This document shows, in pieces, positions 40,068 through 62,484 of a stretch of 64,000 bases of DNA (within the stretch, counting starts at the first letter, position 1; every line of letters starts with the position of its first letter). The notes under the pieces were generated by a model. The model did not search any database and was not told where the DNA came from. It saw nothing but the letters and a program-made list of their open reading frames with translations. This stretch comes from a virus. Location: IMG/VR virus record IMGVR_UViG_3300025141_016157, positions 64,001 through 128,000 of that record; one strand, 5' to 3'. The position numbers and the translations under genes are program-made.

Positions 40068-40703
40068 ATGATTATTACAGAGAAAAGGATAAGAGAAATT
40101 GTTCTCGAAGAAATTATAAGAGAGCAAGAAGAAGTCAATCAAGATTGTCCAATTCCATTTCTTGCTGCCATATTAGCCTCTGAAGCTCCCAATAGTGAAA
40201 GAGAGATGAGTGCCGTATATGATGTTATTATGAAACGAGCAGAAATAGGCTTTAAAGAAGTAAATACGGTCGATGGACAATTAAGAGTTCCCAGGCAATT
40301 CTCTGGATATACAAGATTTAGACCAGACGATACTGCATTTATTGCATACTATAGTGGTACTGCTCCAGATTCTGAATATTCAGTTTCAGCAGATAGAGTA
40401 GAAACAGAGAAGCTTATAAGAAGAAATCAATTTAAAAGAGCATGTGGTGTAATAGTCTCAGATTTTCAAGATCCCGGTAACCCAGATGCACCTACATATG
40501 GAGCAACTCATTTTGTAAATCCAAGAGCAGCATCGACAGATAACAAGTGGTGGGAACTAGATACGTTTAGACCGATTCCGATTAATAATGGATATATAGG
40601 TGATCATCTTTTTGGGTGGGACTTGACAACAAGACAGTCAAGAGAATCATATTTACAGTTTAGATCTAGCCATCCAGAATTTAGCAGTCTCTATCCGGAT
40701 TAA
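40068..40703 (+). CDS. SleB-like cell wall hydrolase with N-terminal tag
   Basis: ASEA (catalytic Glu), V..VI..R, QFS, GATHF, IGDH.F; N-terminus MIITEKRIREIVLEE. Confidence 0.75.
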   Translation: MIITEKRIREIVLEEIIREQEEVNQDCPIPFLAAILASEAPNSEREMSAVYDVIMKRAEIGFKEVNTVDGQLRVPRQFSGYTRFRPDDTAFIAYYSGTAPDSEYSVSADRVETEKLIRRNQFKRACGVIVSDFQDPGNPDAPTYGATHFVNPRAASTDNKWWELDTFRPIPINNGYIGDHLFGWDLTTRQSRESYLQFRSSHPEFSSLYPD

Positions 40704-40706
40704 GCT

Positions 40707-41366
40707 TTAATCTTCAAATTTTCTCAGCCTGGCAACACCATCTGTCACAGTAACATACGTCTGGTGTGTAACCCAGTCGCCTGCATTGATATATGTTTTA
40801 ATATTCTGATCTTCGTCAACCCATATTAAAGCTTCTGGTATGTGTGTATGACCCATAATAAACACATCAACTTTGGGATGGTGTCTAAGAATATTTATAA
40901 TTGATCTTAGCTTGTGCTTCTTAATTTGAATTTCCGTCCACCATGTTGTAAAGTCAAAGTTAAAAGTGAATTCAAGTATATTTTGAATAACAGATAGAAA
41001 TTTAACAAATACTCTATTTGCAAGAGCACCCTTGTCGTAAGAATCGCCGTGTTCAACTCTAAACACTCGGCCTTCATCTTCAAAGTCATACCTTTTAACA
41101 AATTCAACACCCATTATTTTTTTACCAACAACTCCCATTAAACCTTCGTCATGATTTCCAACTACATAGATAATTCTTTTTGCATCACCCATTTTTTCAA
41201 GTATCTGAAGACATCTTTCTGTAAAGACAGGTATCTTTATAAAATCTATAATATCACCAGCGAGAACAAGCTCATCACAATCCTCAGACTCTAAAAATGA
41301 TAAAAGCTCGAGAGACTTATAGAACCTAGTCCCAATATGTGTATCAGATATAATAACTCTTTTCAT
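40707..41366 (-). CDS. Calcineurin-like metallophosphoesterase (LpxH-like)
   Basis: ISD.H, GD..D, GNHD, HGD, GHTH, N.GDW. Confidence 0.88.
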   Translation of the reverse strand: MKRVIISDTHIGTRFYKSLELLSFLESEDCDELVLAGDIIDFIKIPVFTERCLQILEKMGDAKRIIYVVGNHDEGLMGVVGKKIMGVEFVKRYDFEDEGRVFRVEHGDSYDKGALANRVFVKFLSVIQNILEFTFNFDFTTWWTEIQIKKHKLRSIINILRHHPKVDVFIMGHTHIPEALIWVDEDQNIKTYINAGDWVTHQTYVTVTDGVARLRKFED

Positions 41367-41459
41367 TGAACAGTTTGCTAACCTTATATTAATATTATAT
41401 ACAGAACTACAAGGTGTACTATACTTGTGTTACTGAAGTTTAAAAATAAAGGAAAAAAA

Positions 41460-41702
41460 ATGACAGATACAAAAAACACATCAATGGCTTTTAGCGATGA
41501 GGTAATTGGACAAATTGCAAAACTAGTCCAACTAGCAATTATTACAGGGACAGATATTGTTGATAATTTAAGGATGATGCGTGTAACTCTTGATGGAGAA
41601 ACTGATGTTCTTACACTAACTGAAGAATATCGTGAAATATCAGAGGCTCAGGTTGAAAAGCTTATGCAAGAAGTAGAGGCACTTCAATCAGAAGAGGTGT
41701 AA
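41460..41702 (+). CDS. Hypothetical protein
   Basis: ATG at 41460 after AAGGA; QLA..TGTD.VD.LR. Confidence 0.7.
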   Translation: MTDTKNTSMAFSDEVIGQIAKLVQLAIITGTDIVDNLRMMRVTLDGETDVLTLTEEYREISEAQVEKLMQEVEALQSEEV

Positions 41703-41705
41703 GCT

Positions 41706-42077
41706 ATGGAAGATAGACTCTTAGAAATATTTAGGAGAAGAGAATCTTTTATGAAGAGCCTTGGTGATTCTTCCGGAGAATCTATGAACTGGCCACTTGA
41801 TTTATCAAAAAAAGAAAATCAGCAACATGTCAGGGATATGGCACTAAGAGGTGTCGAAGAGATGTTTGAAGCACTTCAGCATTTAAAAAACTGGAAACCT
41901 CATCGGAAAACAGAAATAACTGAATTTGATAGAGAAGAATTTCTTGAAGAGATTGTAGATGCATTTAATTATTTTCTATCGATTCTTGTCCTTACAGGAT
42001 TTGATGATAATGATTTAATTGATGCATACAGAAGAAAAGACAAGATTATAAATGAAAGATTGAGGACTGGATATTGA
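41706..42077 (+). CDS. All-alpha dNTP pyrophosphatase (dimeric dUTPase/dCTPase-like)
   Basis: EE..E, WKPH, EE.VD..NY, Y..K...N..R...GY. Confidence 0.8.
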   Translation: MEDRLLEIFRRRESFMKSLGDSSGESMNWPLDLSKKENQQHVRDMALRGVEEMFEALQHLKNWKPHRKTEITEFDREEFLEEIVDAFNYFLSILVLTGFDDNDLIDAYRRKDKIINERLRTGY

Positions 42078-42985
42078 AAGTTAAAAAGCTATTTGAAGAT
42101 CAGAATTATTTTTCAAAGATGATAGGTACTGTGTGTAACACATCAGAAGATCTTGATAACTTTACAAAAACCCTATCTCTTGCACTTCATAAAGAAGTAA
42201 GTGATCTTGTATCTGCTACTAACTATAGATCTCACACTGATGATAGTATGGTTCCAGATGCAGACAAGATACTTTTTGAATCAGTAGATGTAATTAGATA
42301 TGCAGTAGCTATAATGAATGCGTGGAGCATAACTCCTGAAAAATTTCAAAAAGCATGGATACTAAAGGACAAGTATCTTTCACTTTCAAGAAAGATTGAA
42401 GGAAATACTTGGAAAGGGGAAAAAGTTGCAATTGTTGATATGGACGATGTTCTTTGTGAGTTTAGAGTAGGATTTTCAAATTGGCTAAATAAAAACTACA
42501 GCGTTATAACTGATGTAGAATCAAAAGAGTATTATTTTATTAATGCTCTTGAAAAAGCAGGTATAAACCCAGAGGGAATATTTTTAAAATTTGTATCTGA
42601 AGATGGATTCTCATCTTTAAAGCCAGCATCCGGTGCAATAGATTTTATTAAATCTCTTCAGGAGAAAGGTTATTTTATTCATATATTGACTGCAAGGCCA
42701 GGAGATAATCTAAGATGTCTTTATAATACACTTGACTGGCTTGACTCAAACAATGTCTGCTTTGACAAGGTTAGCTTCTCATCAGAAAAACTGAGATGGT
42801 GCATGCAATCAGAATACTGGTCATCAGGTGCAATAGAGTTTGCAATAGATGATTCACCTAAACATGCAGCAGAATATGCAAAACATGATATAAGAGTTCT
42901 TTTGCCAAGAAAGACTTATAATACAGAGGTTCAAAGTCTTTCAAATGTAATTGTCTATGATTCTTTCCTAGATATTGATATTTAA
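42074..42985 (+). CDS. Degenerate all-alpha dNTPase domain fused to HAD 5'-nucleotidase
   Basis: N-terminal KE..DL..E.VD..RY; C-terminal VDMDDVL, LTAR, K, IDD.P, YN. Confidence 0.75.
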   Translation: MKVKKLFEDQNYFSKMIGTVCNTSEDLDNFTKTLSLALHKEVSDLVSATNYRSHTDDSMVPDADKILFESVDVIRYAVAIMNAWSITPEKFQKAWILKDKYLSLSRKIEGNTWKGEKVAIVDMDDVLCEFRVGFSNWLNKNYSVITDVESKEYYFINALEKAGINPEGIFLKFVSEDGFSSLKPASGAIDFIKSLQEKGYFIHILTARPGDNLRCLYNTLDWLDSNNVCFDKVSFSSEKLRWCMQSEYWSSGAIEFAIDDSPKHAAEYAKHDIRVLLPRKTYNTEVQSLSNVIVYDSFLDIDI

Positions 42986-43084
42986 TTTATCCAATGATTA
43001 AGAATTTTCTGCAGCAGTTGAATAATTAAACATGTTAACTGCTATAATTGTAGAAATAAATTTATTAACGAAATAGAGGAAAAG

Positions 43085-44017
43085 ATGAAGCTAACTCAAA
43101 AATCTTTAAAGAAAATTATTCTTAGCGAGCTTAGAAGGTCCATATCAGAACAAGCACGAGATGCGGGTGACGTCCCCGGGGGCCAGGCACCAGCACGAGG
43201 CACCCAAGCCTATGCTGACAGCCAGAGAGAAATATGGGGTGTCTCTGATGAAGATCTCGAAAGAGAGCGCATCCAGAAACAGGCAGACGAGCGAGGAATA
43301 TCTTTTGAAGAAATGGAGGCTATTCTTGCTCATATGGATTCCCCAGAGTACCGCAGAGAACAATACCTAAGACAGCAAGAACAGGCACGTGCCCATGCAC
43401 GGGATGAAGGAAACTGGCCTGAGCCAAGGACTGGCAATATGTATGAAATCATTGGTGATCCACACAGCGTTGATATTCAAAACGGATTGAAGTGGTTGTG
43501 GCTTGGTGCAGTCCGGGACTCTAAGGTTTTGGAAGGTGTTGCTAAACAGTTCACCCCTAGAGTTCCAGCTGAGGGTGAGTACTTGGCAGGTTTTTCTTCT
43601 CCGATGTGGGCATTGGTTGATCACAGGGACGAAAATGGTGTATATACACAGCTTGTCACTCAGCCCGTGGGTGAGAGGCGAAGAGGCGCAGAGATATGCA
43701 GAATCACCGTCGAATACATTATGAAAGTATCGGGCGATCAAGTAGATTGTGAAATGGCATGGAACAGTGATATGGTTAGACCAGGTAGCCAGCTTGCGCG
43801 AATGATGGACGCAGCAGTTCAGGCAGTAAATGGTTCATCAGCTTCTTTCCCTGCATCGCTAAAATTCTTTCCTGATGGACGAACTGAGGGAGCAAACGCA
43901 GAAGTTCCAGCCTCAGAAGACGAAGTACCGGTTGCAATTCTTGAATTCACAGGAGGCGAGGTTGTGGCGCTGGTCAACATGGACTTCGGTTTTCGCGTTA
44001 GCCCATATGCTCGATAA
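43085..44017 (+). CDS. Hypothetical protein with N-terminal tag
   Basis: 310 aa; MKLTQKSLKKIILSE; GAGG RBS; ATAATTA upstream. Confidence 0.8.
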   Translation: MKLTQKSLKKIILSELRRSISEQARDAGDVPGGQAPARGTQAYADSQREIWGVSDEDLERERIQKQADERGISFEEMEAILAHMDSPEYRREQYLRQQEQARAHARDEGNWPEPRTGNMYEIIGDPHSVDIQNGLKWLWLGAVRDSKVLEGVAKQFTPRVPAEGEYLAGFSSPMWALVDHRDENGVYTQLVTQPVGERRRGAEICRITVEYIMKVSGDQVDCEMAWNSDMVRPGSQLARMMDAAVQAVNGSSASFPASLKFFPDGRTEGANAEVPASEDEVPVAILEFTGGEVVALVNMDFGFRVSPYAR

Positions 44018-44075
44018 TAGACTGACAAATTATGAACACTTCGCATTGTTTTTTTCATAGTTGAGTTTTTTTATA

Positions 44076-44104
44076 TTGTAAACTTTAATTTCTTGCTGTA
44101 TTGT
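44076..44104 (+). promoter_or_regulatory. sigma70-like promoter
   Basis: TTGTAA-N17-TATTGT. Confidence 0.55.
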
Positions 44105-44129
44105 ATAAATGTAAAGCACAGGAGGAAAT

Positions 44130-44558
44130 ATGTTTCGTTTTACCCTACTCACGCCCCTACTTTTTTCACTCTCAGCATACGGAGATATTCCACCAGATAA
44201 TATTCGCATTGAATCTACTCTGGTTGGAAATGCTCCTATAGAGATTCCTGAGAGTGATTGCTCTTCTCCCATTTCAAACTCTATTGTTAAGTTTTTAGAT
44301 ACGGGATCAATGTGCATTGAAGGTGTTCGTGCCCATATTGATGGAAGAGGTTGTAATACAATTTTCTGGGAAAGGGGTTCTGATAATGAATATATCTTCT
44401 TTTGCAAGACAAGAGATACATGTGATATTACTCATGTAGGAAGATTTATTGCATACCCGACTTCACTTCCCGCACCTGAGATTTATTCTAGAAATCCTGC
44501 TATTTGCGAAGATTCAAATTATATTATTTTTCATGAACAAAATAATGTTAGTGAATAA
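44130..44558 (+). CDS. Exported Cys-rich hypothetical protein
   Basis: AGGAGG RBS; signal-peptide-like MFRFTLLTPLLFSLSAYG; six Cys. Confidence 0.7.
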   Translation: MFRFTLLTPLLFSLSAYGDIPPDNIRIESTLVGNAPIEIPESDCSSPISNSIVKFLDTGSMCIEGVRAHIDGRGCNTIFWERGSDNEYIFFCKTRDTCDITHVGRFIAYPTSLPAPEIYSRNPAICEDSNYIIFHEQNNVSE

Positions 44559-44588
44559 AATTAACTAGCGTTAAATATAGGAATACAG

Positions 44589-45575
44589 ATGCCAAAAAAT
44601 AAAAACTTAGAACCAGTTACTTTTCCAATGAAGATTAGATTTGACGAGGATCCGAGCACTGAGTTTAAGAATGATCTTGAATCAATTAATATTTCACTAC
44701 TAGACCATCCCGACCCGCTTAGGGCAAGAAGGATGGTGTACCAATTTATTAATGCAACATGGGAAGATGAGCCCGGTCTTCACAATCCAGACGATGTAGA
44801 TGACTGGAAGCTTTTTCAAGCACTAGAAGCTGCGCTTCAGTTCAAAGCTTTGCCTACAGTCTTGGAGACGCTTGATTTTACATTTAGAATTGAAGGAATC
44901 GATGTCCAGACAGTTACACATTTAATTCGGCATAGAACAGGATCTTTCTCTGCTCAGTGTACAGGAGACAGGTGGCAATCTCATGCAAATGCATTAGTTC
45001 CCGGTCCCATTCAGAATAGTCCTGAGATTTATGAAAGATGGAAAAGTCTAGTTGTTGAGTCAAAGAAGCTTTATTGTGACATGATTGATACAAGGAAGAT
45101 TTCGATTATGGATGCACGAACAATTCTTCCAAAGTGTCTCGAGACACATTATTACGCACGCTTTAATATGAAAGATCTTCTAAACTTTATTAGACAAAGA
45201 ATGGATAAGCAAATTCAGCCAACAACTGACAATATTATTGCATATCAGATGTACTTAGCCGTTGCAAGAATATTTCCAGAAGTTACAACAGTCGTGAATA
45301 TGCACTCACCTTCGAGACATTATGTTGCTACTGCAAGAACCGGAAAGGCAACAAATCTTTATTTTCCAGATAAAGATTCTGATTCGTTTGACTGGCACCC
45401 TAATGACTTTATCTACTCAGCATATCGCGATGAAGTAAATGGTACAGACCCAGATCTCGGCGGAAGAGAAAACTTTAAATTTTCAGAATTGGCATCAATG
45501 TACGATAGACAGGTCAATGACCTTGTAGAAAAGTACAATGAGTGGAAAGAAACTGTCGGATTTGAATCACCATAG
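44589..45575 (+). CDS. thyX: Divergent flavin-dependent thymidylate synthase-like protein
   Basis: E...FTF.I.G......H..RHR..SF, DAR.ILP, N...L..F...R. Confidence 0.75.
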   Translation: MPKNKNLEPVTFPMKIRFDEDPSTEFKNDLESINISLLDHPDPLRARRMVYQFINATWEDEPGLHNPDDVDDWKLFQALEAALQFKALPTVLETLDFTFRIEGIDVQTVTHLIRHRTGSFSAQCTGDRWQSHANALVPGPIQNSPEIYERWKSLVVESKKLYCDMIDTRKISIMDARTILPKCLETHYYARFNMKDLLNFIRQRMDKQIQPTTDNIIAYQMYLAVARIFPEVTTVVNMHSPSRHYVATARTGKATNLYFPDKDSDSFDWHPNDFIYSAYRDEVNGTDPDLGGRENFKFSELASMYDRQVNDLVEKYNEWKETVGFESP

Positions 45576-45583
45576 GCGAAAAA

Positions 45584-46000
45584 ATGTCTTTTTCAGATTC
45601 ATTTAGCATGATTGAATCATGGCTTTTTGAAAAGGATTATGAAGTCTTGTACGAGACTGATGGTCAAGATGCTGTTTATTTTGGCTGTAAGCAAATTATT
45701 CTTAACAGTAGAAACCATATTGAAAAGAGACTATATATACTTTTGCACGAATGTGGTCACATACTAATAAATAGCAACTCTTTCGACAGGGTATTTTCCC
45801 TTAGCAGCGAAACAGAAGCTATAATGGGCGGTAGAAAAGTTTCTAGAAAAAGAAGAGTTGCAAAGCTAACAGAGGAAATTGAAGCCTGGAAACGAGGTGA
45901 GAATCTTGCAAGAAGGCTTGGGATAGAAATAAATGAAGAAAAGTTTGATAGAATACGTGCGAATGCTATTATGAGCTATATCGAATGGGCAAGAGATTAG
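45584..46000 (+). CDS. Small zincin (HExxH; IrrE/ImmA-like)
   Basis: LLHECGH and EE..AW..G. Confidence 0.75.
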   Translation: MSFSDSFSMIESWLFEKDYEVLYETDGQDAVYFGCKQIILNSRNHIEKRLYILLHECGHILINSNSFDRVFSLSSETEAIMGGRKVSRKRRVAKLTEEIEAWKRGENLARRLGIEINEEKFDRIRANAIMSYIEWARD

Positions 46001-46809
46001 CTCACTGAATGTTTAATATTTGTGTAGAGCTTAGTTAGAAATTTCTCTAGAGATTTTCTATCATTCTTTAATGTTTCTTTATATCTGGAAACTATTCCAG
46101 CAAGATCAGAGTCTTGCCTTTTGATAAGTGAAAGCGCTTCTTCTTGCGTGTATTTATCTAAAAGCTGCTCAGATGCTTCATATGCAAATGCATCAATTTC
46201 ATTATGAAGGCTAAGGTAGTCTTCCTGCGTTCCGCCTTTTGACAACTGCTTGGGATCGTTCTGTAGTTCTTCCCATGCCTCTTCTTCACTAATCCCTTTG
46301 CTTTCTGCCTGTTTCTTAAGTTGATTATAGTGAACTAGTTCATGGTTGATAGTTCGTGATATTATCTTTGATAGCTCTGTAGAGTCTAAGTCATCCATAT
46401 CATACTCATCAGAGTAGGGTCTAAACTCAAGCCATATAATGTGTTTCCCATTTTCAGGACCTCTGTATTGACCTCTCATCATCCAGTTGCTAGGATATCC
46501 TCCATATTCATCTCCCGGTCCTAAAGTATATAGCTCATTATCTGTAACACTGAGGAAAAAATATAGATCTGTACCAAGATCACTAGCAGATGTATTTAGT
46601 GCATCCATAAGAGTTTCAATTGCAGGAGTTGACCAGGTCGACTCATCAACAAGATCTACATCATTTTCATTGTGAGCCATTTCCCAAAACTTAGAATCGA
46701 CAATTCCTTGAAAAATAGCTGATGTCAATTCTTTATCAGGTGCTGTTGATTCACACAGCAAGATCTCTTCCTTGATGATCTGTCTTAATTGCCTGCGTGT
46801 GATTTTCAT
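45997..46809 (-). CDS. Zincin (HExxH) protein with N-terminal tag
   Basis: MKITRRQLRQIIKEE; HELVHYNQ; Y....EIDAFA. Confidence 0.82.
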   Translation of the reverse strand: MKITRRQLRQIIKEEILLCESTAPDKELTSAIFQGIVDSKFWEMAHNENDVDLVDESTWSTPAIETLMDALNTSASDLGTDLYFFLSVTDNELYTLGPGDEYGGYPSNWMMRGQYRGPENGKHIIWLEFRPYSDEYDMDDLDSTELSKIISRTINHELVHYNQLKKQAESKGISEEEAWEELQNDPKQLSKGGTQEDYLSLHNEIDAFAYEASEQLLDKYTQEEALSLIKRQDSDLAGIVSRYKETLKNDRKSLEKFLTKLYTNIKHSVS

Positions 46810-46856
46810 GTTTAAACCCTGTTAGATAATAATTATTTCACTTTTTCTAATTTATT

Positions 46857-51009: not shown

Positions 51010-52341
51010 ATGAAGATAACAGAGTCAAGAATCAGAAGAATTATAAGAGAAGAGCTTCTTCAGGAATCTAGTGACTTTAGATTTGACATTAACAAAAGTG
51101 TATATGTACTTCCTGATGCGCAGGTAGAGATTGAAAAAGCGGGGGATGGCTGGCTATTAAAGATCAGGAATTTACAAGCAGGACAATTTGGTTCAGTTCC
51201 TTTGAACATCTACGGACCATCCTACATGCTTGATTCGCTTGTACCACACGGAGCAGAGCCGGGCGATAAGCATCATAGGTTCTTGCAATCTGTAGGCTTT
51301 CCATTTGATGATCATCCTCCCTACGAAACCTGGGAGAATGAATTTCCCGGGGGCGCCAGAAGATTTATCACTGATGGTGACTACCTTGATCAGTACCTTG
51401 AAAGATTTCACAAAGATGAGGAATTTACTAGTGAGTTCAGGCTAAGCTACTTTGGCTACGCTCAGGATGTCTTACAGGGAATTCGCTTAACGCTTGATAG
51501 AATTGACAGCTATATACATAGCAATAGGGTTCAAAATATCATAGCTAGGGATCATGATGATTTTAAAGATAAGCTTGCAAAATTTTTCTCAATAAGTGAA
51601 ATAAACATTGTTGATAAGACAGCACGAGATACGGCTGGTTTCTATATGCCATCTGAACACAGTATCACAATTGCAGTTGCAAGAAACCCGCGTAAGGTGA
51701 CAAGGGAAACAACCTATCATGAATTTCTTCATCACTGGCAAGAAATTTTTGATGAACCTGAAAATTTTGATTGGAAGTTTCGTCCACTTGAACGTGAAGA
51801 TGAGACAGGCTTAGGGCAAGAAGATGAAACATATGAAGCTCTTTATTCACAACTAATGGCTGCCTCAAATATTCCAGTAAGAAGGTGGCTTAGGAACCTC
51901 GGAGCAAGCTATCTTAATCTTCCTACTAATTTTGACAGATATACTGTTAGAGAGTCAATGAGAAAAGCTGAAAGCTTTGAGATGTCATTAAGCGCTGATG
52001 ATAAGGGGGAGTGGAGTGGTTTTGATTCAGTCTTTAAGGCATTTTACCAGTTTCAGGAAAACCACTTTACAATGTCCCTAAGACGACTCTTTATGATCTT
52101 AAATAACTTAGGATATGATTTAGATTTAACTAGTGATAATAGCATTGAAAGATTTAAAGAGGGATTAAATTTATTTTTAAGATTTGGATTTCCACACAGC
52201 GTATATCTTAAAAACAGGGATTTGATTGCGTTACCTTTGTTTCTTAAGCCTACACCAAAGAATATAAATTTAATCACAAGAATAGGTGATACTCTTGCTT
52301 CTAATGAAATACATTCTGACAGTGGTACTGAAACTGTATAA
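51010..52341 (+). CDS. Zincin (HExxH) protein with N-terminal tag
   Basis: MKITESRIRRIIREELLQES; AGFY.P....I.I, TYHEFLHHWQ. Confidence 0.82.
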   Translation: MKITESRIRRIIREELLQESSDFRFDINKSVYVLPDAQVEIEKAGDGWLLKIRNLQAGQFGSVPLNIYGPSYMLDSLVPHGAEPGDKHHRFLQSVGFPFDDHPPYETWENEFPGGARRFITDGDYLDQYLERFHKDEEFTSEFRLSYFGYAQDVLQGIRLTLDRIDSYIHSNRVQNIIARDHDDFKDKLAKFFSISEINIVDKTARDTAGFYMPSEHSITIAVARNPRKVTRETTYHEFLHHWQEIFDEPENFDWKFRPLEREDETGLGQEDETYEALYSQLMAASNIPVRRWLRNLGASYLNLPTNFDRYTVRESMRKAESFEMSLSADDKGEWSGFDSVFKAFYQFQENHFTMSLRRLFMILNNLGYDLDLTSDNSIERFKEGLNLFLRFGFPHSVYLKNRDLIALPLFLKPTPKNINLITRIGDTLASNEIHSDSGTETV

Positions 52342-52381
52342 AACAATTATTAAGAATAATTATATTAAGAGCAAAGTTATT

Positions 52382-53314
52382 ATGAAAATCACACACAAGC
52401 GGCTAAAAAGAATTATAAGAGAAGAGCTTCTACGTGAGGCCAGTGGAGCTGCAGGTCCGGGCACAGTTCCAGGATACAATTATATTGAGGTATCTGAGTA
52501 CAGAGGTAAACCTGCTCACATGATAAATGCTAAGCATCTCAAAAGAACTTTGAAAGAGACATTGGGTATAAAGCAACATGGAACGGCTGACGACCACTTC
52601 CACCAGGCGGGCTTGGGAGGTATTATTTCTGGTTGGGGAAGCCTAAGTAAGAAACTAACAAAAATCTGGAGCGATCGAATCCCCCAGGGACAAGGCGGTC
52701 ATGGAACGGGATGCCAAAGCTGCTGGGCAGACTTCTTTATTCTTGTAGATCTTGGAAAATGTGGAGCATCTCAGGCATACTTGATCCCTGGTGTTAGCGT
52801 TGTTGAAGATATTCCAATTATAGTATTTGGAGATATTAGTCTTGAGCCTCTAATTGATCACATAGCAGATGAAGCAGGCTTGGCGATAATTGGGAAAGGC
52901 GAAAAAAGAGATGATGCTGAACAACAGACTGTTGAAAATGAGTGGGCAGAATGGACAGGTAGACAGTATGAGCTTATTAGTAAATTTCATAATAAGGTGT
53001 ATTATGGAGGCGAGATGCTTTCCGACCTATTACACGATGCATTTGTTTTCCGGACACCAGTAATTGTTGTGCTCCCAAGGTCATCGCTAATTAAAGATAT
53101 TGATCCGTGTGTCATTGCTAAAAATTATCAACTTCTTAGAGCGCCACCGGTGACACCGGTGGCTCCAGCTGTTAAGGATGAAGTAGAGCTTGATCCTGCA
53201 AGCGTGGAGATAGATCCCCAGGGCCAGCAAATAGATATTGATTCTGAGATATATGATGCGCCTCTTGAGCCGTATAAATCTCCCTTTAGAACTCCAATAG
53301 GTAAGCAAGATTAA
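52382..53314 (+). CDS. Hypothetical protein with N-terminal tag
   Basis: Probable start at ATG 52382 (MKITHKRLKRIIREELLREAS), preceded by ATAATTA. Confidence 0.8.
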   Translation: MKITHKRLKRIIREELLREASGAAGPGTVPGYNYIEVSEYRGKPAHMINAKHLKRTLKETLGIKQHGTADDHFHQAGLGGIISGWGSLSKKLTKIWSDRIPQGQGGHGTGCQSCWADFFILVDLGKCGASQAYLIPGVSVVEDIPIIVFGDISLEPLIDHIADEAGLAIIGKGEKRDDAEQQTVENEWAEWTGRQYELISKFHNKVYYGGEMLSDLLHDAFVFRTPVIVVLPRSSLIKDIDPCVIAKNYQLLRAPPVTPVAPAVKDEVELDPASVEIDPQGQQIDIDSEIYDAPLEPYKSPFRTPIGKQD

Positions 53315-53315
53315 A

Positions 53316-56300
53316 ATGAAGATAACAGAATCCAGAATCAGAAGAATCATAAGAGAAGAGCTTCTTAAAGAAGATAGCGAAGATACCGTTCTAGGAAAAA
53401 TGAGCTGGCCCATGGCGCCTGGTGTCTCAGACCCGTTTGGTGAACTACGATCCTCAAATCCCCCACCAGTTCTTTCAACATCAATGTGGTATGACCTCGA
53501 TGGTGACGCAATGCTATCGAGTCATAAGATTGAATCAAAGAAATTTATTGAACACCTTATGGATACTATAGAGCACAGAGGTGGAGTTGCAAACTCTGTT
53601 GCAAATGCTGGACACATCGCAGCTGTCTACAAGGAAATGGGTGTTGAGACGCGAATAGCTCCATACCCTGGGCCTAAGCATTGGGGTGCAGGAGATTATG
53701 AGTCATGGGGAGAGTTTCCAGGATCAGCAAGAAGTTTTTTTAAAAAGTATGACCCATGGGTTCTTGATGCGGACGAGATATTTCTCGTAACAGTTGATAA
53801 TACTTCTTACAGGGCTCCTGGCCAAAAAGTTACAGAGATTGAACCTGAAGATATGGAGATGGGAGTTGAATACGGAGGAACAACTGATCCCGCAGCTGGC
53901 AAGATTAAGCGAGCACTTAGCTCTCTACTTGGTGACCTTACGCTTCCTGCCCATTACGATCCTTCACCAGTTCAACTGACCGCTGCTAAATCATGGCTGT
54001 CTCAATGGCTTCCAGGAGGAAATCCATCTCCTGAAATGGCTAGGGCAATGGCAGCTACAAATCCATACAATGCTGTCTGGGAAACATTTCTAGGTCCAAT
54101 AAAAGAGTGTCTAAGCGGTCAAGCAGCTGCCAAAGAAGAAGCTACTCGAAGAGCATCAAAGCAGGATGATTTCTATTCTAGAGAAGGGGCAGACATAACC
54201 TTTGCTGGAGGAGCAACGTCAGAGGATACCCAGGCTGTTCTCAAACAAATGCAAAAAACTGGGGAGGCAGAAAAGATATCAGATGAATCAATTGGGACTT
54301 CTTCTGCTGGTCTGTGTGCATCAGCCAGAGCATCAGAGCTTATAGCATTGTTAGTTTTGCCATCTGGACAGTTTACTTTAGCCGGAAGGATTGCGCTAGC
54401 AGCTGGTCTCGTTCATCTTGCAAGAGGCTCTCACAGAGAGGCTATGTTTGAACTACTGCTTGGTGCATTTGAGATTGTAGCAGCAACCAAAGCGATTGTA
54501 AGATATACCGCAGTAGTTAAAAGTGCACTTAGGTCAGGAAAGCTTCCGGCAGATGACATTCTCGAAGAAATGATTAAAGCTGGAGTATTTGAAGAGCATG
54601 CTGATATAATAAGGCGGTTAGCAAGACAGCCAAAGATGGAGGAAGAAGTTCAAGCTATGCGCCAAGAGATGGCAAGAGTAATCGAGACAATGGATAGTAC
54701 AGATCCCTTGAAGCCTTATCTGGATGCATATGTTAGAGGAGCCAGTTCAGATGAGCTTAGGGGAATATACAAGGCTGCCAAGGCTGAGATTGAGTCTGGA
54801 GCTCGCTGGGACATTCACACGTCAACTAGACGTGCAGCTGATATTGATCCAGATGAGCTCGATGCGTGGCTAGAAAGACTTGAGGACTTACCGCTTACAT
54901 CATCTCCTGGATCTAGAAAAGCTGTAATAGACAAGTATATAGAATCTCAGATCAGTATAAATAGAGCTCTGGAAGCTGAACAGGCAACAGCAAGAGGTGC
55001 AGGTCGAGGGAAATCGACTCCGGAAAATCCATGGGGAAAGGGTCCTGAGCCTAAAGCAATTAGACCCGCAGGATCTAAGGCGCCATTAGCACAAACAGCC
55101 AATATGGGAAGACAGATTATTGATTTAGCATATGCCAAATTACGATCGATACCTGATGGTAAAATTTATAAGATTGCAAAATTCGAAAGAGGTCACTTCA
55201 GCGACGTTGATAGAATTGAAATTAGACTGGATGGTTTGTTTGATGTTGATGATATTGAAAAAATTGTTGACGACTCTCTCGGTGACTATCTAAACACGCT
55301 CACACCCCCGCAGGCATCAAGGTATAAGCAAGATGTTATTGAAGAAATCCAAAACCTTGACTTTGTAGTAGGACCAAGGACTCCTGACAGGGTGGGACAA
55401 TATGTCCAATCCGGACCTGGTCAAAGAGGCCAAGTCTGGGTTGAACCGTTTGACAAAGAAGAGTGGAAGGCTATAGTAGGAACCAATAGAGATCGACCAG
55501 ATTTTGAAGAAGCCGTTAAAAAAGCTTTTATCGACGCTCTAGATTCTGGAACAAAATTTGATTTGCCAGAGCAGGTGAGAAATACACTTTCTCATGAACT
55601 TGGTCACTGGATAGACCTCACTATCGAGGGAAATAAATATGATCACCTTATTGTAGATTCAAATGGAATTCCCATGAGGGAAATCGATGGCAAGCAGATG
55701 ACATTTGATCAAGCTGTCAAAGAAAGAAAAGTTAAAACAATAGAAGAATGGCTACAGGACCCGCCGGATATCTTTGGAGATTTCGTAACGCAACCCTGGC
55801 ATGGAAGAATTGGGGAGCTAGATGCTGAAATAACAAGAGGCGTAACAGATTTTCAAGATTCCCTAGAGGCATCAATTAAAAGAATTCGTGACCTTGATGA
55901 TCAATATAAGCTTCCCTGGGATATCTCTCCCAGAAAGCCGCCGCGAGATCAACAGCCAGTAGCATCTGATAGTCCGTCAGCATGGGATAGAAGAAGTACT
56001 ACCAAACACCCATCACAGACTACTCGCAGACAAGAGCCGAAAAAATGGGATGATGCAGAGACAAAGTCAGCAATGCACAAAGAAGAGATGGCAGAGATCG
56101 GCTTGGACGAACTAGATTATACATATCAAATATTGACTGATAAAGATCTATTTAGGGATATATTTGTCGGAGACTACTTTCCTATTGAGCCTAACCGTGG
56201 GTATCTTGATGATTATGGATGGGTAGGAAGTGCAGAAAATATCGTAGATCAAAAGATTGATGACGTTCTTTTCGAACCTGGCGGATTATGGGACTGGGCT

Positions 56301-56393
56301 AGAAAGGAAGCAGGAATAAACGTTGAGTACATTGACATGCAGGAGTCAGTTGTATATGTGTCTCGGTGGATGAAACTTGCAGGTATAAAATGA
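53316..56393 (+). CDS. Large multidomain protein: N-terminal tag, hydrophobic segment, zincin, C-terminal RWxxLAGIK
   Basis: MKITESRIRRIIREELLKE; LSHELGHWID...GELDAE; ends SRWMKLAGIK. Confidence 0.85.
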   Translation: MKITESRIRRIIREELLKEDSEDTVLGKMSWPMAPGVSDPFGELRSSNPPPVLSTSMWYDLDGDAMLSSHKIESKKFIEHLMDTIEHRGGVANSVANAGHIAAVYKEMGVETRIAPYPGPKHWGAGDYESWGEFPGSARSFFKKYDPWVLDADEIFLVTVDNTSYRAPGQKVTEIEPEDMEMGVEYGGTTDPAAGKIKRALSSLLGDLTLPAHYDPSPVQLTAAKSWLSQWLPGGNPSPEMARAMAATNPYNAVWETFLGPIKECLSGQAAAKEEATRRASKQDDFYSREGADITFAGGATSEDTQAVLKQMQKTGEAEKISDESIGTSSAGLCASARASELIALLVLPSGQFTLAGRIALAAGLVHLARGSHREAMFELLLGAFEIVAATKAIVRYTAVVKSALRSGKLPADDILEEMIKAGVFEEHADIIRRLARQPKMEEEVQAMRQEMARVIETMDSTDPLKPYLDAYVRGASSDELRGIYKAAKAEIESGARWDIHTSTRRAADIDPDELDAWLERLEDLPLTSSPGSRKAVIDKYIESQISINRALEAEQATARGAGRGKSTPENPWGKGPEPKAIRPAGSKAPLAQTANMGRQIIDLAYAKLRSIPDGKIYKIAKFERGHFSDVDRIEIRLDGLFDVDDIEKIVDDSLGDYLNTLTPPQASRYKQDVIEEIQNLDFVVGPRTPDRVGQYVQSGPGQRGQVWVEPFDKEEWKAIVGTNRDRPDFEEAVKKAFIDALDSGTKFDLPEQVRNTLSHELGHWIDLTIEGNKYDHLIVDSNGIPMREIDGKQMTFDQAVKERKVKTIEEWLQDPPDIFGDFVTQPWHGRIGELDAEITRGVTDFQDSLEASIKRIRDLDDQYKLPWDISPRKPPRDQQPVASDSPSAWDRRSTTKHPSQTTRRQEPKKWDDAETKSAMHKEEMAEIGLDELDYTYQILTDKDLFRDIFVGDYFPIEPNRGYLDDYGWVGSAENIVDQKIDDVLFEPGGLWDWARKEAGINVEYIDMQESVVYVSRWMKLAGIK

Positions 56394-56581: not shown

Positions 56582-56584
56582 AAT

Positions 56585-57493: not shown

Positions 57494-57519
57494 AATAATA
57501 ATATAGGATTGGAGAATTT

Positions 57520-58530
57520 ATGAGAGCACTAATCACAGGAGGTTGCGGATTTATTGGATCAAATCTTGCAAAAGCTCTTGTATCAAATGGCTGGACAGTA
57601 GACGTAGTAGATAATATGTCAGCAGGATCAATTTCTGCACTTGATAACTTAAAGATAAGACAATTACCCAATGCAAGCTTTTTACCACATTTTTATGAAA
57701 GTACTACTGGGACGGAAAGGGAAAGGATGCAAGATGAAATCTTGGTCATACCCGACGATCTTTCGCATGAATCAGTTTTAAATCATATAAGATCAAAAAT
57801 GTATGATATTGTCTTTCATCAGGCAGCAATACCACGAGTAAGCTACTCAGTTGAAAATCCTGCAGAAACCACATACGAAAATATTACAAAAACAGTTTCA
57901 CTTTTTGAAGCTTGTAATGGAAATGTTAAAAGGGTCGTCTGGGCATCTTCATCTTCAGTATATGGTGGCGCAAAGATTCTTCCAACTCCAGAATCAGAAA
58001 GAGGAAAGATGCTACCTCTTTCTCCATACGCCTGGCAAAAATTTGCGATTGAAGACTTTTCAAAGATTTGTGGAACACTCTATAATTTAGACATAGTGTG
58101 TTTAAGATATTTTAATGTTTTTGGACCTGGTCAGCTTGGAGACTCTCCGTATGCAACTGCAATATCTGCATGGTGCAATGCTGTAAAGAAAGGTTGCGGC
58201 CTTAGGAGTGACGGAGACGGCAATCAATCAAGAGATCTCTGCTATATAGAAAATGTTATCCATGCTAATATTCTAGCTGCTACTTCAAGTAAGACATTTA
58301 ACGGTAGATGCTATAATGTAGCTTGCGGAGATAGAGTTTCAAATAATGAAATATTAGAGTTTTTTACTAATAAATTTGATGCTAGTATTATAAATGCACC
58401 TGAGAGACCTGGTGATGTCAAGCATACACAGGCAGATATAACTAGAATACAAGATGAGCTTGGGTATTCACCAATTGTTGAATTTTGGGAAGGTCTAGAT
58501 AAAACTATCAAATGGTGGGGTCTTGAGTGA
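57520..58530 (+). CDS. NAD-dependent nucleotide-sugar epimerase/dehydratase
   Basis: TGGCGFIGS, ASSSSVYG, SPY...K, LRYFNVFGP, GDG.Q.RD, RPGDV. Confidence 0.93.
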   Translation: MRALITGGCGFIGSNLAKALVSNGWTVDVVDNMSAGSISALDNLKIRQLPNASFLPHFYESTTGTERERMQDEILVIPDDLSHESVLNHIRSKMYDIVFHQAAIPRVSYSVENPAETTYENITKTVSLFEACNGNVKRVVWASSSSVYGGAKILPTPESERGKMLPLSPYAWQKFAIEDFSKICGTLYNLDIVCLRYFNVFGPGQLGDSPYATAISAWCNAVKKGCGLRSDGDGNQSRDLCYIENVIHANILAATSSKTFNGRCYNVACGDRVSNNEILEFFTNKFDASIINAPERPGDVKHTQADITRIQDELGYSPIVEFWEGLDKTIKWWGLE

Positions 58531-58952
58531 GTATTAAAATTCCAAAACATGTAAAATCTTCATGGGTAAAAAAAGGCATGTCAAAGCCAATACAAAAACC
58601 GTGGGGCCATGAATATGTGTGGGCAGGATTTTCAGGAATTCATGGAAAATCTCTATTTATAAAAAAAGATCATAGAACAAGCTTTAAGTATCATAGTTTA
58701 AAAACTGAAGTTTTGTTTCTTCAAAAAGGAACAGCAGAAGTTACGTTTGGCGATGAATACTCATTACGAGATCCAGTTGGACACCCATTTAAAATAGAAA
58801 TCATTGATGCCGGAAGCTCTCTAATGGTACAGTCAAATTGCCCCTATAGAATAAAAGCAATATCTGACTGTGAGATTATTGAAATAGGTAATAACTCATC
58901 AGATACACCAGTAAGAATAGAAGATGACTACGGAAGAATAGAAAATGAATAG
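58527..58952 (+). CDS. Cupin (mannose-6-phosphate isomerase-like)
   Basis: KPWG.E, S..YH..K.E, IIE, RIEDDYGR. Confidence 0.8.
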   Translation: MSIKIPKHVKSSWVKKGMSKPIQKPWGHEYVWAGFSGIHGKSLFIKKDHRTSFKYHSLKTEVLFLQKGTAEVTFGDEYSLRDPVGHPFKIEIIDAGSSLMVQSNCPYRIKAISDCEIIEIGNNSSDTPVRIEDDYGRIENE

Positions 58953-59514
58953 AATGCCAGAATTTATTATATTTACAGGTCCAATGTTTGGAGCAAAAAC
59001 AAGCAGGCTACTAGCAACAATTGATAGATTTTCATATCAAAATAGAAAAGTAATAGCATTTAAACCTAAAATAGATAGAAGATATTCGCAGACAGATATA
59101 ACAACACATAACGGAATTTCTATTGAAGCACATGCTGTCAATACAGGTGAAGATATAGTATCTCAGGTTCTTGAAAGAGAAGATTGCATAGACGTTGTAG
59201 CTGTTGATGAAGCATTTATGATAGAAGATTGTGCAGATTCCCTGTTAAAGCTATTTAGAATGGGAAAGACAATAGTAGTTTCATCTCTTCAGCTGTCTGC
59301 ATCTGGAAATGTTTTTACAGAGATTAGAGATATGATGCCATGGGCAACCAAGATAGAAGTTTGTCCAGCAGTTTGCACTGTTTCTGGTCATGATGCATAT
59401 TATACACACAAGAAGGTAGATGATCTTGCAGAAATTACTGTTGGTGGATCAGAGCTTTATGAACCTCGTTCATGGAAACATCATTCCTTCATGAATCAAA
59501 CTTTTAAAAATTGA
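58945..59514 (+). CDS. tdk: Thymidine kinase
   Basis: GPMFG.KT, KP..D.RY, VDEA, AVC, VGG.E.YEP. Confidence 0.9.
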   Translation: MNRMPEFIIFTGPMFGAKTSRLLATIDRFSYQNRKVIAFKPKIDRRYSQTDITTHNGISIEAHAVNTGEDIVSQVLEREDCIDVVAVDEAFMIEDCADSLLKLFRMGKTIVVSSLQLSASGNVFTEIRDMMPWATKIEVCPAVCTVSGHDAYYTHKKVDDLAEITVGGSELYEPRSWKHHSFMNQTFKN

Positions 59515-59521
59515 GAAAAAA

Positions 59522-60436
59522 ATGATTGAACCTACTAGTGTAAATTGCGTAATTTATCATGCTGATTGTACCGATGGTTTTGGTGCTGCTTATGCCGCAT
59601 GGAAATGCTTGGGCAATAGAGCTGAATATCATCCATGTAAGCACGGCATGGATACACCAGACATAACGGGAAAAAGCGTTGTTATTTTAGATTTTTCCTT
59701 TGACAACTCAACAACAAAAAAAATGATTTCTGATGCTGAGTCATTGCTTGTAATTGACCATCATAAATCTGCAATGGTTGAGTTGCATGATATTACTAAT
59801 ACTCGTTTTGATATGACTAAGAGCGGAGCAATGCTAGCTTGGGAATTTTTTCATCCCGGGAAAGAACCTCCAAAGTTCATCCAGTATATTCAAGATAGAG
59901 ATCTTTGGAAGTGGGAACTCCCATACTCAAGAGAGTTTGCAGCAGCGTTTGACATGGTACCATTTGAGTTTGAAGAATTTGAGAAGTTTGAAGATGATTC
60001 TGTATTTGATGATGCTAGAAAGAGAGGGTCCTTTATCCTAGCTTATTCTAAGACAGTTGTTAAGAAAGTGTGTGAAAAAGCATCACCTCGAAAAATGATG
60101 GGAAAGGATGTAATGGTGGTAAATGCTTCACACTGGATGTCAGAGATTGGAGCTAGACTAGCTCCTGACTGTGATCTTGCTATGATATGGTACTGGGATC
60201 ATGATGCAAAGCATACAAAAGTTAGCCTAAGAGCGTTTCATGATACCGTAGACGTTTCAGAGATAGCTAAGAAATTTGGCGGAGGCGGGCATAGAAAAGC
60301 AGCGGGATTTCAACTTCCAAAAAATAAGCATGTAGAAGATTTATTTGATAAGCCAAAGCCTGCAAAGAAGAAGAGGGTGACAAGGCCAAAAACTAAAGCA
60401 AAGCAAGATCAGCAAAAAAAAGATGATGAAAAATAA
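59522..60436 (+). CDS. DHH/DHHA1 phosphoesterase
   Basis: YH.DC.DG, LDF, IDHH, DRDLW, SLR, GGGGH..AAGF; basic tail. Confidence 0.9.
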   Translation: MIEPTSVNCVIYHADCTDGFGAAYAAWKCLGNRAEYHPCKHGMDTPDITGKSVVILDFSFDNSTTKKMISDAESLLVIDHHKSAMVELHDITNTRFDMTKSGAMLAWEFFHPGKEPPKFIQYIQDRDLWKWELPYSREFAAAFDMVPFEFEEFEKFEDDSVFDDARKRGSFILAYSKTVVKKVCEKASPRKMMGKDVMVVNASHWMSEIGARLAPDCDLAMIWYWDHDAKHTKVSLRAFHDTVDVSEIAKKFGGGGHRKAAGFQLPKNKHVEDLFDKPKPAKKKRVTRPKTKAKQDQQKKDDEK

Positions 60437-60447
60437 GGTTATAGCCA

Positions 60448-61089
60448 ATGTCAACTATATTTGAAAAAGATGGAAGAAGAATTCTATTTGTTCATATTCC
60501 TAAGTGCTCCGGTACATCTGTTAGAATGATGCTCCAGGAGGAAGGGTGGAAACCTCAACCTCAGCATATAATAAGGCCAACATTCTTTATCACAGGAGAG
60601 TTTGCTGGTCCCGTTACGTCTAATCATCAGCACGCAGAGATGAGAAATGACTGGATTTCAAAATGGGATTATGAGTTTGCACTTGTAAGAAATCCATATG
60701 ATAGATTAGTATCTCGTGGAAAACAGTCAGCAAGAAGGCTAAAGCTTACTTATATCAAAGAAGTTAATTTTTTTGCTTGGGCAGATGATGTTCTAGGAAG
60801 AGTTATGAGAAAAGAGGGTCCCGGCGCAGAAGATAATCACTACAGACCACAAGTAGAATTTATTTCAGATAAAACTCAATGGTTTAGAATGGAAGACCAG
60901 AAAGAGCTTTTTTTAGAAACCCTTAGAAAGGAGAATATAATATCAAACACTGCAAAGCTTGGCGTTTTTAACAAATCTCTTTCTGAGAATAATGAGTATA
61001 GCTTTAATTGGGGTATGTTTCCCGATATCCACAAAAGATTTTTAGATAAATACAAAAAAGATTTTGACGTATTTGGATATAAAATATGA
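60448..61089 (+). CDS. Sulfotransferase family protein
   Basis: FVHIPKCSGTS, VRNPYDR.VS, H..PQ, Y..DF..FGY. Confidence 0.85.
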   Translation: MSTIFEKDGRRILFVHIPKCSGTSVRMMLQEEGWKPQPQHIIRPTFFITGEFAGPVTSNHQHAEMRNDWISKWDYEFALVRNPYDRLVSRGKQSARRLKLTYIKEVNFFAWADDVLGRVMRKEGPGAEDNHYRPQVEFISDKTQWFRMEDQKELFLETLRKENIISNTAKLGVFNKSLSENNEYSFNWGMFPDIHKRFLDKYKKDFDVFGYKI

Positions 61090-61499
61090 AAAGGCCGACG
61101 TGGAATAAAATATGGCTAGAGTTTGCAAACTCTATATCAAAAAGATCATATGATCCAAGGTACAGAGTTGGAGCAGTAATAGTAACAGAAGATAACACAC
61201 AGGTTTTATCAGTAGGGTATAATGGTAACTATGCAGGAGGGCCAAATCAAGTTGAATCTACAGTTCCAGGAGAGTCTGGAATGATACATGCTGAAATTAA
61301 TGCTTTGCTTAAAATGGATTATAATAATCCAAAGTCTAAAAAGTTATACCTTACTTTATCACCGTGCAGAATGTGTGCAAAGGCAATAATAAATGCAGGA
61401 ATATCAGAAGTTTTTTATTCCGAGATCTATAGAGATGATTCATCTCTTAAAATTCTAGATGAGTCGGGAATAAAACATAAGCTAATTCAATTAGAGTAA
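61086..61499 (+). CDS. dCMP deaminase
   Basis: VGAVI, GYNG, HAE.NA, SPC..C. Confidence 0.92.
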   Translation: MKRPTWNKIWLEFANSISKRSYDPRYRVGAVIVTEDNTQVLSVGYNGNYAGGPNQVESTVPGESGMIHAEINALLKMDYNNPKSKKLYLTLSPCRMCAKAIINAGISEVFYSEIYRDDSSLKILDESGIKHKLIQLE

Positions 61500-61516
61500 A
61501 TAATTATTAATGTATC

Positions 61517-61795
61517 ATGAAAGAATTGAACTCTAAATCCATCAACAAATTAGTCTCTTATATAAGAGAGAACCTATCAGTATCTGCAGGCACAGGTGAT
61601 AACAAAAGAATTCTTATCAAGCCCGGGTTGAAAATAACGCATGTGGGCAATAAAGAAAATCAGGGTTCTGGGCTCAATTATACAGTTGATGCAGTTTTAG
61701 ATTCAGAAGATGGATTACTTATAAGATGTGTAAGACCCCCAGACGTCTTTATCACACTCACAGGCACTGACCTAAAACAGTTTGAGAGAACATAA
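61517..61795 (+). CDS. Hypothetical protein
   Basis: 92 aa; ATAATTA upstream; TAATG coupling to the next gene. Confidence 0.7.
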   Translation: MKELNSKSINKLVSYIRENLSVSAGTGDNKRILIKPGLKITHVGNKENQGSGLNYTVDAVLDSEDGLLIRCVRPPDVFITLTGTDLKQFERT

Positions 61796-62484
61796 TGACA
61801 ATAACAAAAAAAGATTTATTATCTAAAATTAGAGATGATCTAAATTTATCAGATACCCTAGAAGAATCTATAATTGCCCAGCCAAAGAAGTTTAGATTAA
61901 AAACTGATTTATTGAGCGAGGCAAACAAGGTAAATCATGTTGAGCTATATGATCAGTACGTAAAAGACTTTAATAAGATAAGCATTGAGTTAGACTCAGC
62001 TAATAGAAAAGACTCTAGCTCTAACGGATCACTCTATAGATCTTTAAAAATAGATGAGACATACAATCTAAACTCAGTATATCTTCATGAGCTTTACTTT
62101 AATAATATTAGCGATCTTCATAGTAATATTCCAATGGACTCTTTGGTGTATATGAGGCTGTCTAGAGATTTTGGAACATTCGATGCCTGGCAGCAAGATT
62201 TTATAGCCAGCTGCATGGCCTCAAGATGCGGATGGGCTATCACATATTATAATATGTTCACACAGACTTATATGAATTGTCCTATTGATCTACACTCGAT
62301 TAATGTGCCTGTTGGTGCATACCCAGTAATTGTTATGGATGTTTGGCAGCATGCATATTATCGTGATTATCTAAAGGATAAGAAATCTTATGTTTTTGGA
62401 ATGATGAAACAGCTCAATTGGAGCGTGATTGAAAAGAGGGTTGAAAAAGCAGAAGAGATATCAAGAGTGGTAAAAGGTGGATAG
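61795..62484 (+). CDS. Fe/Mn superoxide dismutase-like protein with N-terminal extension
   Basis: H..LY..YV, N...LHELYF.N, FG.F..W...F, GW, P..V.DVWQHAYY.DY, NW. Confidence 0.85.
   Translation: MTITKKDLLSKIRDDLNLSDTLEESIIAQPKKFRLKTDLLSEANKVNHVELYDQYVKDFNKISIELDSANRKDSSSNGSLYRSLKIDETYNLNSVYLHELYFNNISDLHSNIPMDSLVYMRLSRDFGTFDAWQQDFIASCMASRCGWAITYYNMFTQTYMNCPIDLHSINVPVGAYPVIVMDVWQHAYYRDYLKDKKSYVFGMMKQLNWSVIEKRVEKAEEISRVVKGG

Follow-up and report, generated by a model that had tools for sequence, protein, structure and literature searches.

The stretch of DNA analyzed here (the window, 64,000 nucleotides) comprises bases 64001–128000 of the single 160,346 bp phage contig IMGVR_UViG_3300025141_016157, whose source is, by its sequence, an uncultured marine and distantly T4-like myovirus. 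Six of its genes encode proteins with unrelated bodies that all begin with one short amphipathic leader peptide (the tag), and this leader is probably a clade-specific signal for capsid (prohead-core) targeting and processing, which would resemble the capsid-targeting sequence (CTS) of phage T4 in its working although it is distinct from it in sequence. We read it in this way because the leader ends at I-x-E, an S77 family prohead protease is present, the motif also occurs on head-module proteins, and the bodies of the tagged proteins avoid the cleavage motif. With less assurance, we lean toward a wider proposal, namely that the uncultured marine T4-like phages of one large clade, which extends up to a 484 kb phage, load more than 200 unrelated and fast-changing protein families by way of one portable 14-residue label, and that these include tandem-tag polyproteins and cargo with a scaffold motif.

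In the mechanism that we propose, a protein made late in infection would carry at its N-terminus an amphipathic helix of 14–19 residues, MKIT-RRQ-L-R-x-[IL]-I-x-E, which would dock the protein to the scaffolding core during prohead assembly. The S77 protease would cut after the glutamate of I-x-E, at residue 14 and/or, in this genome, at a second [LI]xE at residues 19–22, and the mature protein would thereby be freed inside the head, would be present in virions, and would leave with the DNA at the next infection. The proposed cargo of the label would include a cell wall hydrolase, an L,D-transpeptidase, an exonuclease and HExxH enzymes.

The leader and the proteins that bear it

Exactly six open reading frames (ORFs) in the 160 kb genome begin with MKIT-x3-[IL][RK]-x-II-x-EE, and searches of all six frames of the 160,346 bp with this regular expression and with a hidden Markov model (HMM) of the tag found no further full match. 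They start at window positions 40068, 43085, 46809 (minus strand), 51010, 52382 and 53316, and are called T1 to T6 in that order (the fourth is referred to below as tagged protein T4, to keep it apart from phage T4). A preliminary description of the window had quoted seven such N-termini; all seven are present at those starts or, for the seventh, at 61795, each at an ATG codon, and the six confirmed here bear a common tag on unrelated bodies, as it had claimed. With the first 22 residues removed, no significant pairwise similarity among the six bodies was found by BLASTP (all E > 0.04). The HMM used for the genome scan was trained on these six tags; a second HMM, built only from the tags of related phages and thus avoiding circularity, gave E values of 1.9e-8 for T3, 1.6e-4 for tagged protein T4, 3.2e-4 for T6 and 8.5e-4 for T5 (T1 and T2 are taken up below).

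The pooled consensus of the tag is M-K-I-T-R-R-Q-L-R-x-[IL]-I-x-E-(E)-(L), in which I12 is conserved in 93% and E14 in 89%. The information content of 279 tags is 2.2–3.7 bits at positions 2–12 and 2.85 bits at E14, and it drops to about 0.15 bits at residue 17; the sample was partly chosen on positions 1–14, so that only the sharp fall beyond them is unbiased. This fall bears out the earlier statement that similarity stops after an [LI]xE site. In 246 of the 279 tags residue 14 is the glutamate of the first [ILVM]xE, and the variant found in this genome extends to a second site, LLxE at 19, LCE at 20 or ISE at 22, the leader length being 14–19 residues.

Every synonymous codon occurs at each position of the tag: ATC, ATT and ATA each account for about one third of the isoleucine codons, Leu8 is encoded by six codons, and the arginines by both AGA and CGN. 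Selection therefore acts on the peptide and not on the DNA, and an RNA or DNA signal as the basis of the tag is ruled out by this free codon use. The same observation bears on the idea that the leader is left over from common descent or belongs to a recombination cassette, that is, a conserved 5' gene segment whose peptide has no function. The tagged genes often lie in tandem clusters, and the two CTS copies in phage T4 are identical in DNA, both of which would suit such a cassette, but the synonymous codons vary freely at every tag position, the leaders of tagged proteins T4 and T6 differ at synonymous sites only, and 173 singleton bodies (see below) have no residual similarity to one another. 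We consider this explanation very improbable.

T1 (211 amino acids (AAs), window 40068–40703, plus strand) has the leader MIITEKRIREIVLEEIIRE at 40068–40124, followed by a SleB/CwlJ-type hydrolase body. Its homologues, which are 45–50% identical to it, start with MKITRGDLRSIIRE..LLxEQ, i.e. MKITRGDLRSIIREMLLTEQ; all of them have the leader, and E19 is invariant. The earlier label of a SleB-like hydrolase holds at the level of the family, 7 of 10 members of which match the SleB/CwlJ profile PF07486 (Hydrolase_2; best E 3.5e-6), while T1 alone falls below the cut-off of that profile (18.1 bits vs 27). The AF2 model of T1 has a pLDDT of 46.6, which is too poor for a fold search. T2 (310 AAs, window 43085–44017, plus strand) is a weakly tagged orphan with the leader MKLTQKSLKKIILSELRRSISE at 43085–43150, and T5 (310 AAs, window 52382–53314, plus strand) is a tagged orphan with the leader MKITHKRLKRIIREELLRE at 52382–52438; the related-locus search found no relatives of either.

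T3 (270 AAs, window 45997–46809, minus strand), with the leader MKITRRQLRQIIKEEILLCE at 46750–46809, belongs to a cargo family that is conserved in the clade. Among its 120 homologues the glutamate at the leader end, E20, is invariant, as are HExxH and, downstream of it, HNEIDAF..E. AF2 models T3 with a pLDDT of 88.5; the tag forms a helix of its own (residues 5–19), set apart from a folded body that begins at residue 26, and the L-C-E site falls in a low-confidence linker (pLDDT below 50 at residues 17–19). The leaders of the T3 family come in two types; distant homologues start with MKLLxENWRxY-h-x-E, which has equal length and the equivalent invariant glutamate (alignment A7), and on this alignment the family is a case in which leaders can be exchanged on one body. 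We note that the alternative leader resembles the conserved N-terminus of the prohead protease (..LKLLTEWxPL..), which has conserved LTE and [IL]xES sites.

Tagged protein T4 (443 AAs, window 51010–52341, plus strand; leader MKITESRIRRIIREELLQE at 51010–51066) has only two homologues among 5.8e9 proteins, a full-length one (80% identical) that retains the leader and an N-terminally truncated fragment. The region that encodes tagged proteins T4 and T5 gave no blastn match to phage records. T6 (1025 AAs, window 53316–56393, plus strand; leader MKITESRIRRIIREELLKE at 53316–53372) has HExxH in the form HELGH, and the motif is thus present in T3, tagged protein T4 and T6. T3 and tagged protein T4 had been labelled zincins; the HExxH motifs agree with this label, and the fold searches gave it no further backing, the T3 model having no Foldseek match at E <= 0.001. 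VIA-align with the same model gave Z values of 4.5–5.4 to M1 aminopeptidases, DUF885 and an HExxH domain. Pfam and PHROGs searches with the six bodies returned almost no annotation, searches of PDB sequences with T1 and T3 returned nothing significant, and the best score of an ESM Atlas search with T6, 0.80, is a lead only.

Head module and cleavage motif

Directly 5' of the window are genes for a T4-type large terminase, a gp20-like portal protein (PF07230, E 8e-79) and a gp21-type prohead serine protease (L001:16053–16694; Peptidase_S77 PF03420, E 1.7e-25; phrog_207, E 4e-56). Four small ORFs follow 3' of the protease gene, and then the gene for a gp22-like scaffold, an acidic coiled-coil protein of 483 AAs; this gene has its start at genome position 62705, outside the window, and its 3' end, at window 1–156 (plus strand), encodes a C-terminus that ends ..EVDRWAVLAGIKN. 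The gp23-like major capsid protein gene is at window 199–2211 (plus strand). Its product has a conserved N-terminus, M-x-K-x-FTLNQLTEGIR, and shares no more than 50% identity with the capsid protein of any deposited phage; the closest phages in this respect are LR756508.1 (uncultured, 484 kb), Flavobacterium phage immuto, Microcystis phage Mel-JY01 and Rhodothermus phage RM378. With an S77 protease, a portal and a gp23-like capsid protein, the genome has a head module of the T4 type.

The tag motif is also found within this module. The products of p135 and p81, small ORFs directly 3' of the protease gene, carry it near the N-terminus in about 80 relatives (M-x-KL[ST]+xxLKxIVKECLVEILxEG in p135 and ..KLTPxxLKKIVLEEKKK in p81), and these N-terminal segments are the best-conserved parts of both proteins, which in size and position may be likened to the small core proteins gp68 and gp67 of phage T4. 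The capsid protein segment FTLNQLTEGIR and the tag have the skeleton h-T-x-x-Q-L-x-x-x-I in common.

A second tie to head assembly is seen in T6. In about 60 relatives (essentially all) the scaffold ends with a conserved E[VL]xRWxxLAG[IL]K, and RWxxLAGIK is the most conserved short motif of the protein (..DRWAVLAGIKN in this genome, window 124–156); T6 has a copy of it, SRWMKLAGIK, at its own C-terminus (window 56361–56390, plus strand). Judging from other phages, this scaffold motif would bind the capsid protein, and it may be likened to the coat-binding C-terminal helix-turn-helix of the P22 scaffolding protein. The one homologue of T6 among 1.8e9 representatives, P0135, retains the N-terminal tag and ends with DRWKLLAGI, though its C-terminal half cannot be aligned with that of T6. 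Since the N-terminal tag and the C-terminal motif are both kept in T6 and P0135, they would seem to be two separate ties to head assembly. A co-folding prediction of the tag (alignment A5) with the full scaffold (alignment A4) scored 0.00, which counts neither way on binding. An untagged ORF of 961 AAs in a related contig (L144) ends with ..GRWQKLAGIR.

The frequency of the cleavage motif differs sharply between the head-core proteins and the tagged bodies. The seven head-core ORFs from p284, which adjoins the portal gene, to the scaffold gene (L001:15226–20000 and window 1–156) contain 46 [LI]xE where 20 are expected (2.30-fold), and [LI]xD is at expectation, which fits core proteins that are cut to pieces. 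The five bodies that the gene caller recognized as tagged contain 13 [LI]xE vs 25 expected (0.51, z = -2.85), and their [LI]xD and [LI]xK are above expectation. In the six tagged proteins of this genome [LI]xE is clustered in the first 22 residues; the bodies hold none or one each (none in the 192 AA T1 body), except for the 1000-residue body of T6, which has nine. For 242 tagged bodies we divided observed over expected [LI]xE by the same quotient for [LI]x[DQK], which gave 0.73 (bootstrap confidence interval 0.64–0.83), and 653 untagged ORFs gave 1.02 (0.96–1.08; label permutation p <= 2e-4 for the difference). By comparison with untagged ORFs of at least 150 AAs, E is the polar residue most depleted in the tagged bodies at the last position of the [LI]xE motif (0.80, vs 1.07–1.21 for D, K, Q, R and N; per-protein Mann-Whitney p 2.8e-5 for the depletion of E). 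Such opposite statistics would be expected if the tagged bodies had to withstand a protease specific for [LI]xE of which the core proteins are substrates, and enrichment in core proteins vs avoidance in cargo could serve as a cheap general test for a protein that meets the head protease.

These figures also bear on a different fate of the tagged proteins, in which the leader does target them to the prohead core and is cut there, but they would be accessories of assembly (additional core or scaffold components), to be degraded or expelled and not delivered to the next host as cargo. It would agree with the presence of the motif on the head-module proteins p135 and p81, with the mimicry of the scaffold C-terminus by T6, and with the 2.3-fold excess of [LI]xE in the head-core proteins, which is like that of gp22, gp67 and gp68, proteins that are cut to pieces in phage T4 (PMC9026906). 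Avoidance of [LI]xE by the tagged bodies is, however, the opposite of what sacrificial core proteins display, several bodies are enzymes (the cell wall hydrolase, YkuD, RNase T and the HExxH proteins), and the rapid turnover of 206 body clusters (see below) fits host-directed proteins better, so we think such accessories an unlikely explanation.

Distribution in related phages

Relatives of the prohead protease number 558 in IMG/VR. On nine long contigs of related phages the tag HMM had from 0 to 17 matches each, with at least one match on eight of the nine, and nearly all matches begin at position 1 of the model and on a start codon. The 484 kb LR756508.1 has 17 copies of the variant M[KR]L[TS]E[RK]KL[RK]xI[VI]KEEIxxVLxE, and Flavobacterium phage immuto has one weak copy, in gp080, which starts with MKKSQLRQIIKEAL. 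The same HMM had no matches in the T4-like cyanophage S-SSM7, in RM378 or in phage T4.

A strict back-translated DNA pattern (MKITRRQLRx-h-I-x-E) was found about 100 times in IMG/VR, on 68 stretches, vs 5 times in 596 Gb of prokaryote genomes (185,579 species genomes), so that the tag is far from equally common outside phages. The five prokaryote matches lie on two contigs of marine metagenome-assembled genomes (MAGs), L235 (NHDW01000006.1, 306 kb, from the 'Methylococcaceae bacterium TMED69' MAG) and L234 (CAXGAI010000004.1, from a 'Rhodopirellula' MAG). The TMED69 MAG encodes an S77 protease of the clade (63% identity); both contigs are probably mis-binned phage DNA, and the tag appears to be essentially specific to phages. 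All five large contigs that were found through the tag alone encode a protease of the same clade (62–69% identity). A degenerate DNA pattern of the tag variant of this genome (..IIxEE) had no match in IMG/VR, and tblastn of the 22 AA tag against 50,697 phage records gave none, the query being too short.

The pooled set contains 311 unique tagged ORFs, in which the tag begins with a Met start (284), begins with a probable GTG, TTG or ATH start (19), or is truly internal (8). From these, 272 bodies fall into 206 BLAST clusters, of which 173 are singletons, and a Pfam search with 100 diverse tagged proteins gave only single matches, to YkuD (L,D-transpeptidase), RNase_T, EF-hand and RFC_C. The eight proteins with an internal copy (in L089, L152, L154, L160, L175, L186, L192 and L199) all begin with a tag as well, and the second tag has lost its Met and retained its sequence; they are apparently tandem fusions of two tagged cargo genes. 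The internal copies indicate therefore that a free N-terminus is not needed, which fits an internal element for docking and cutting.

They also count against any signal that needs a free N-terminus, among a group of explanations in which the helix would target a partner outside the capsid (host RNA polymerase, nucleic acid, a membrane or a chaperone) or would be an N-terminal degradation signal for a ClpP-like protease of the phage, and I-x-E would be incidental. The tag is basic (Arg-rich) and amphipathic, the tagged genes are outside the head module, a ClpP-like ORF, recognized by eye only, is present at window 35765–36367, and tag-like strings occur at the C-termini of two ORFs, all of which would be in keeping with such a partner. 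It would leave unexplained why the bodies specifically avoid [LI]xE, why head-module proteins have the motif, why T6 has a scaffold-like C-terminus and why the junction glutamate is invariant in the T1 and T3 families, and we regard explanations of this kind as quite unlikely.

Several observations weigh against a CTS-like targeting and processing signal. The tag has no sequence similarity to the CTS of phage T4, and the depletion of [LI]xE in the relatives is moderate, about 20–27%. With the HMM built only from relatives' tags, T2 (E 1.2) and T1 (E 7) are not significant; T1 is counted as a member despite this weak score because its homologues carry the leader with the invariant E19. The tagged genes lie among genes for replication and nucleotide metabolism, outside the head module, as the ip genes of phage T4 likewise lie outside its head cluster. 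The putative late-promoter motif ATANTTA precedes T1 (ATAATTA at window 40056–40062, plus strand, starting 12 nt upstream of the start codon), T3 (ATAATTA at 46830–46836, minus strand, starting 27 nt upstream) and T5 (ATAATTA at 52356–52362), as well as the portal, protease, p81, scaffold and sheath genes, 20–40 nt upstream. This fits late expression but does not discriminate: in the relatives ATANTTA precedes 18% of tagged and 17% of control ORFs, and the co-occurrence of tag and motif that had been anticipated is not borne out.

Known systems and minor tag-like sequences

Phage T4 gp21 cuts after L/I-x-E, the phage T4 CTS, a leader of 10 residues, is enough by itself to bring foreign proteins into the head and is cleaved off afterwards, and the T-even internal proteins are diverse in their mature parts (PMC9026906, PMC3012670). 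The CTS (of IPI, IPII, IPIII and Alt) and the tag are alike in being short N-terminal leaders of otherwise unrelated proteins with an L/I-x-E end, and the two phages are alike in having a gp21 family S77 protease, a gp20-like portal and a gp23-like capsid protein. The internal-protein genes of phage T4 and the tagged genes are both scattered, polymorphic and fast-evolving. The leaders themselves differ (MKTYQEFIAE, 10 AAs, in phage T4 vs MKITRRQLRx[IL]IxE, 14–19 AAs, in the clade), and the phage T4 genome has two exact copies of the CTS pattern and 0 matches to the tag HMM (A3). The repertoire is also larger in the clade (as many as 17 in one genome and over 200 body clusters in our limited sample, vs 3–4 in phage T4), and tandem-tag fusions and a cargo family with an added scaffold-like C-terminal motif are unlike phage T4. 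The function of the CTS has been demonstrated experimentally, and an Asp in place of its processing Glu (residue 10) blocks the cut, whereas the function of the tag is predicted from sequence. The preliminary description had likened the two; the S77 protease, the I-x-E end, the motif in the head module, the avoidance of [LI]xE and the diverse bodies speak for the likeness, and homology of the leader to the CTS does not hold. The tag is thus likely to be a sequence-distinct and much expanded analogue of the CTS.

In phiKZ-like giant phages a diverged gp21 homologue processes many proteins of the head interior after Glu, and the propeptides may hold several sites (PMC9026906). These phages (phiKZ, 201phi2-1 and SPN3US) would be like the clade in having N-terminal propeptides that are cut after Glu by gp21-like proteases, the cleavage being a predicted one in the clade; their propeptides are long and no single common leader has been described for them, whereas the clade reuses one 14-residue leader almost verbatim. 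The phiKZ-like cleavage motif is S/A/G-x-E. Our literature search found no paper with the tag strings, nor one that describes a metagenomic CTS beyond the phage T4 and SPN3US papers.

Proteins injected with phage DNA act before phage gene expression, for example in anti-restriction or in modification of the host RNA polymerase, and to our knowledge almost none are known outside a few model phages. If the tag is a loading signal, the tag and the avoidance of the cleavage motif could together reveal from sequence which proteins uncultured phages inject, hundreds of orphan families would become candidate counter-defense or takeover factors, and a second packaging tag would become available for engineering.

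The seventh protein of the preliminary description, a superoxide dismutase (SOD)-like protein of 229 AAs (window 61795–62484, plus strand; Sod_Fe_C, E 6.3e-18), had been listed as a weaker bearer of the tag, and we reject it as a canonical one, the tag HMM score being negative in this protein and in 12 relatives. Its N-terminal extension, about 30 residues long, is variable among the 12 relatives, and in this protein and in all 12 of them the conserved body ([YI]VAQPK..) is immediately preceded by an [LIV]xE[SA] site, which suggests that it may also be cut by the head protease, though without a canonical tag.

A few other sequences resemble the tag. An ORF of 118 AAs at L001:7357–7713 (genome 51357–51713), with ATATTTA 28 nt upstream, starts with MNREAFRKIIHEEIKSVLQDDALF; it resembles a canonically tagged ORF of L096 (MKVSRSQLRQMIREVMADLEEDALF) and is probably a cargo gene whose tag has decayed. 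The two ORFs with tag-like C-termini are at window 26762–28480 (..EQALRRIIRRKIRISESKKK) and genome 152150–152575 (..ITEDKLREIVRNVLLG), and a multi-domain ORF of 1562 AAs (genome 134893–139581) has an internal tag-like MSLTFDNLRSLIDDVL at about residue 322 (G000:C1:135856). The ORF at window 35765–36367 (200 AAs), which by eye only looks like a ClpP/S49-type serine protease, has ATAATTA 32 nt upstream and would be a second protease beside the S77 head protease.

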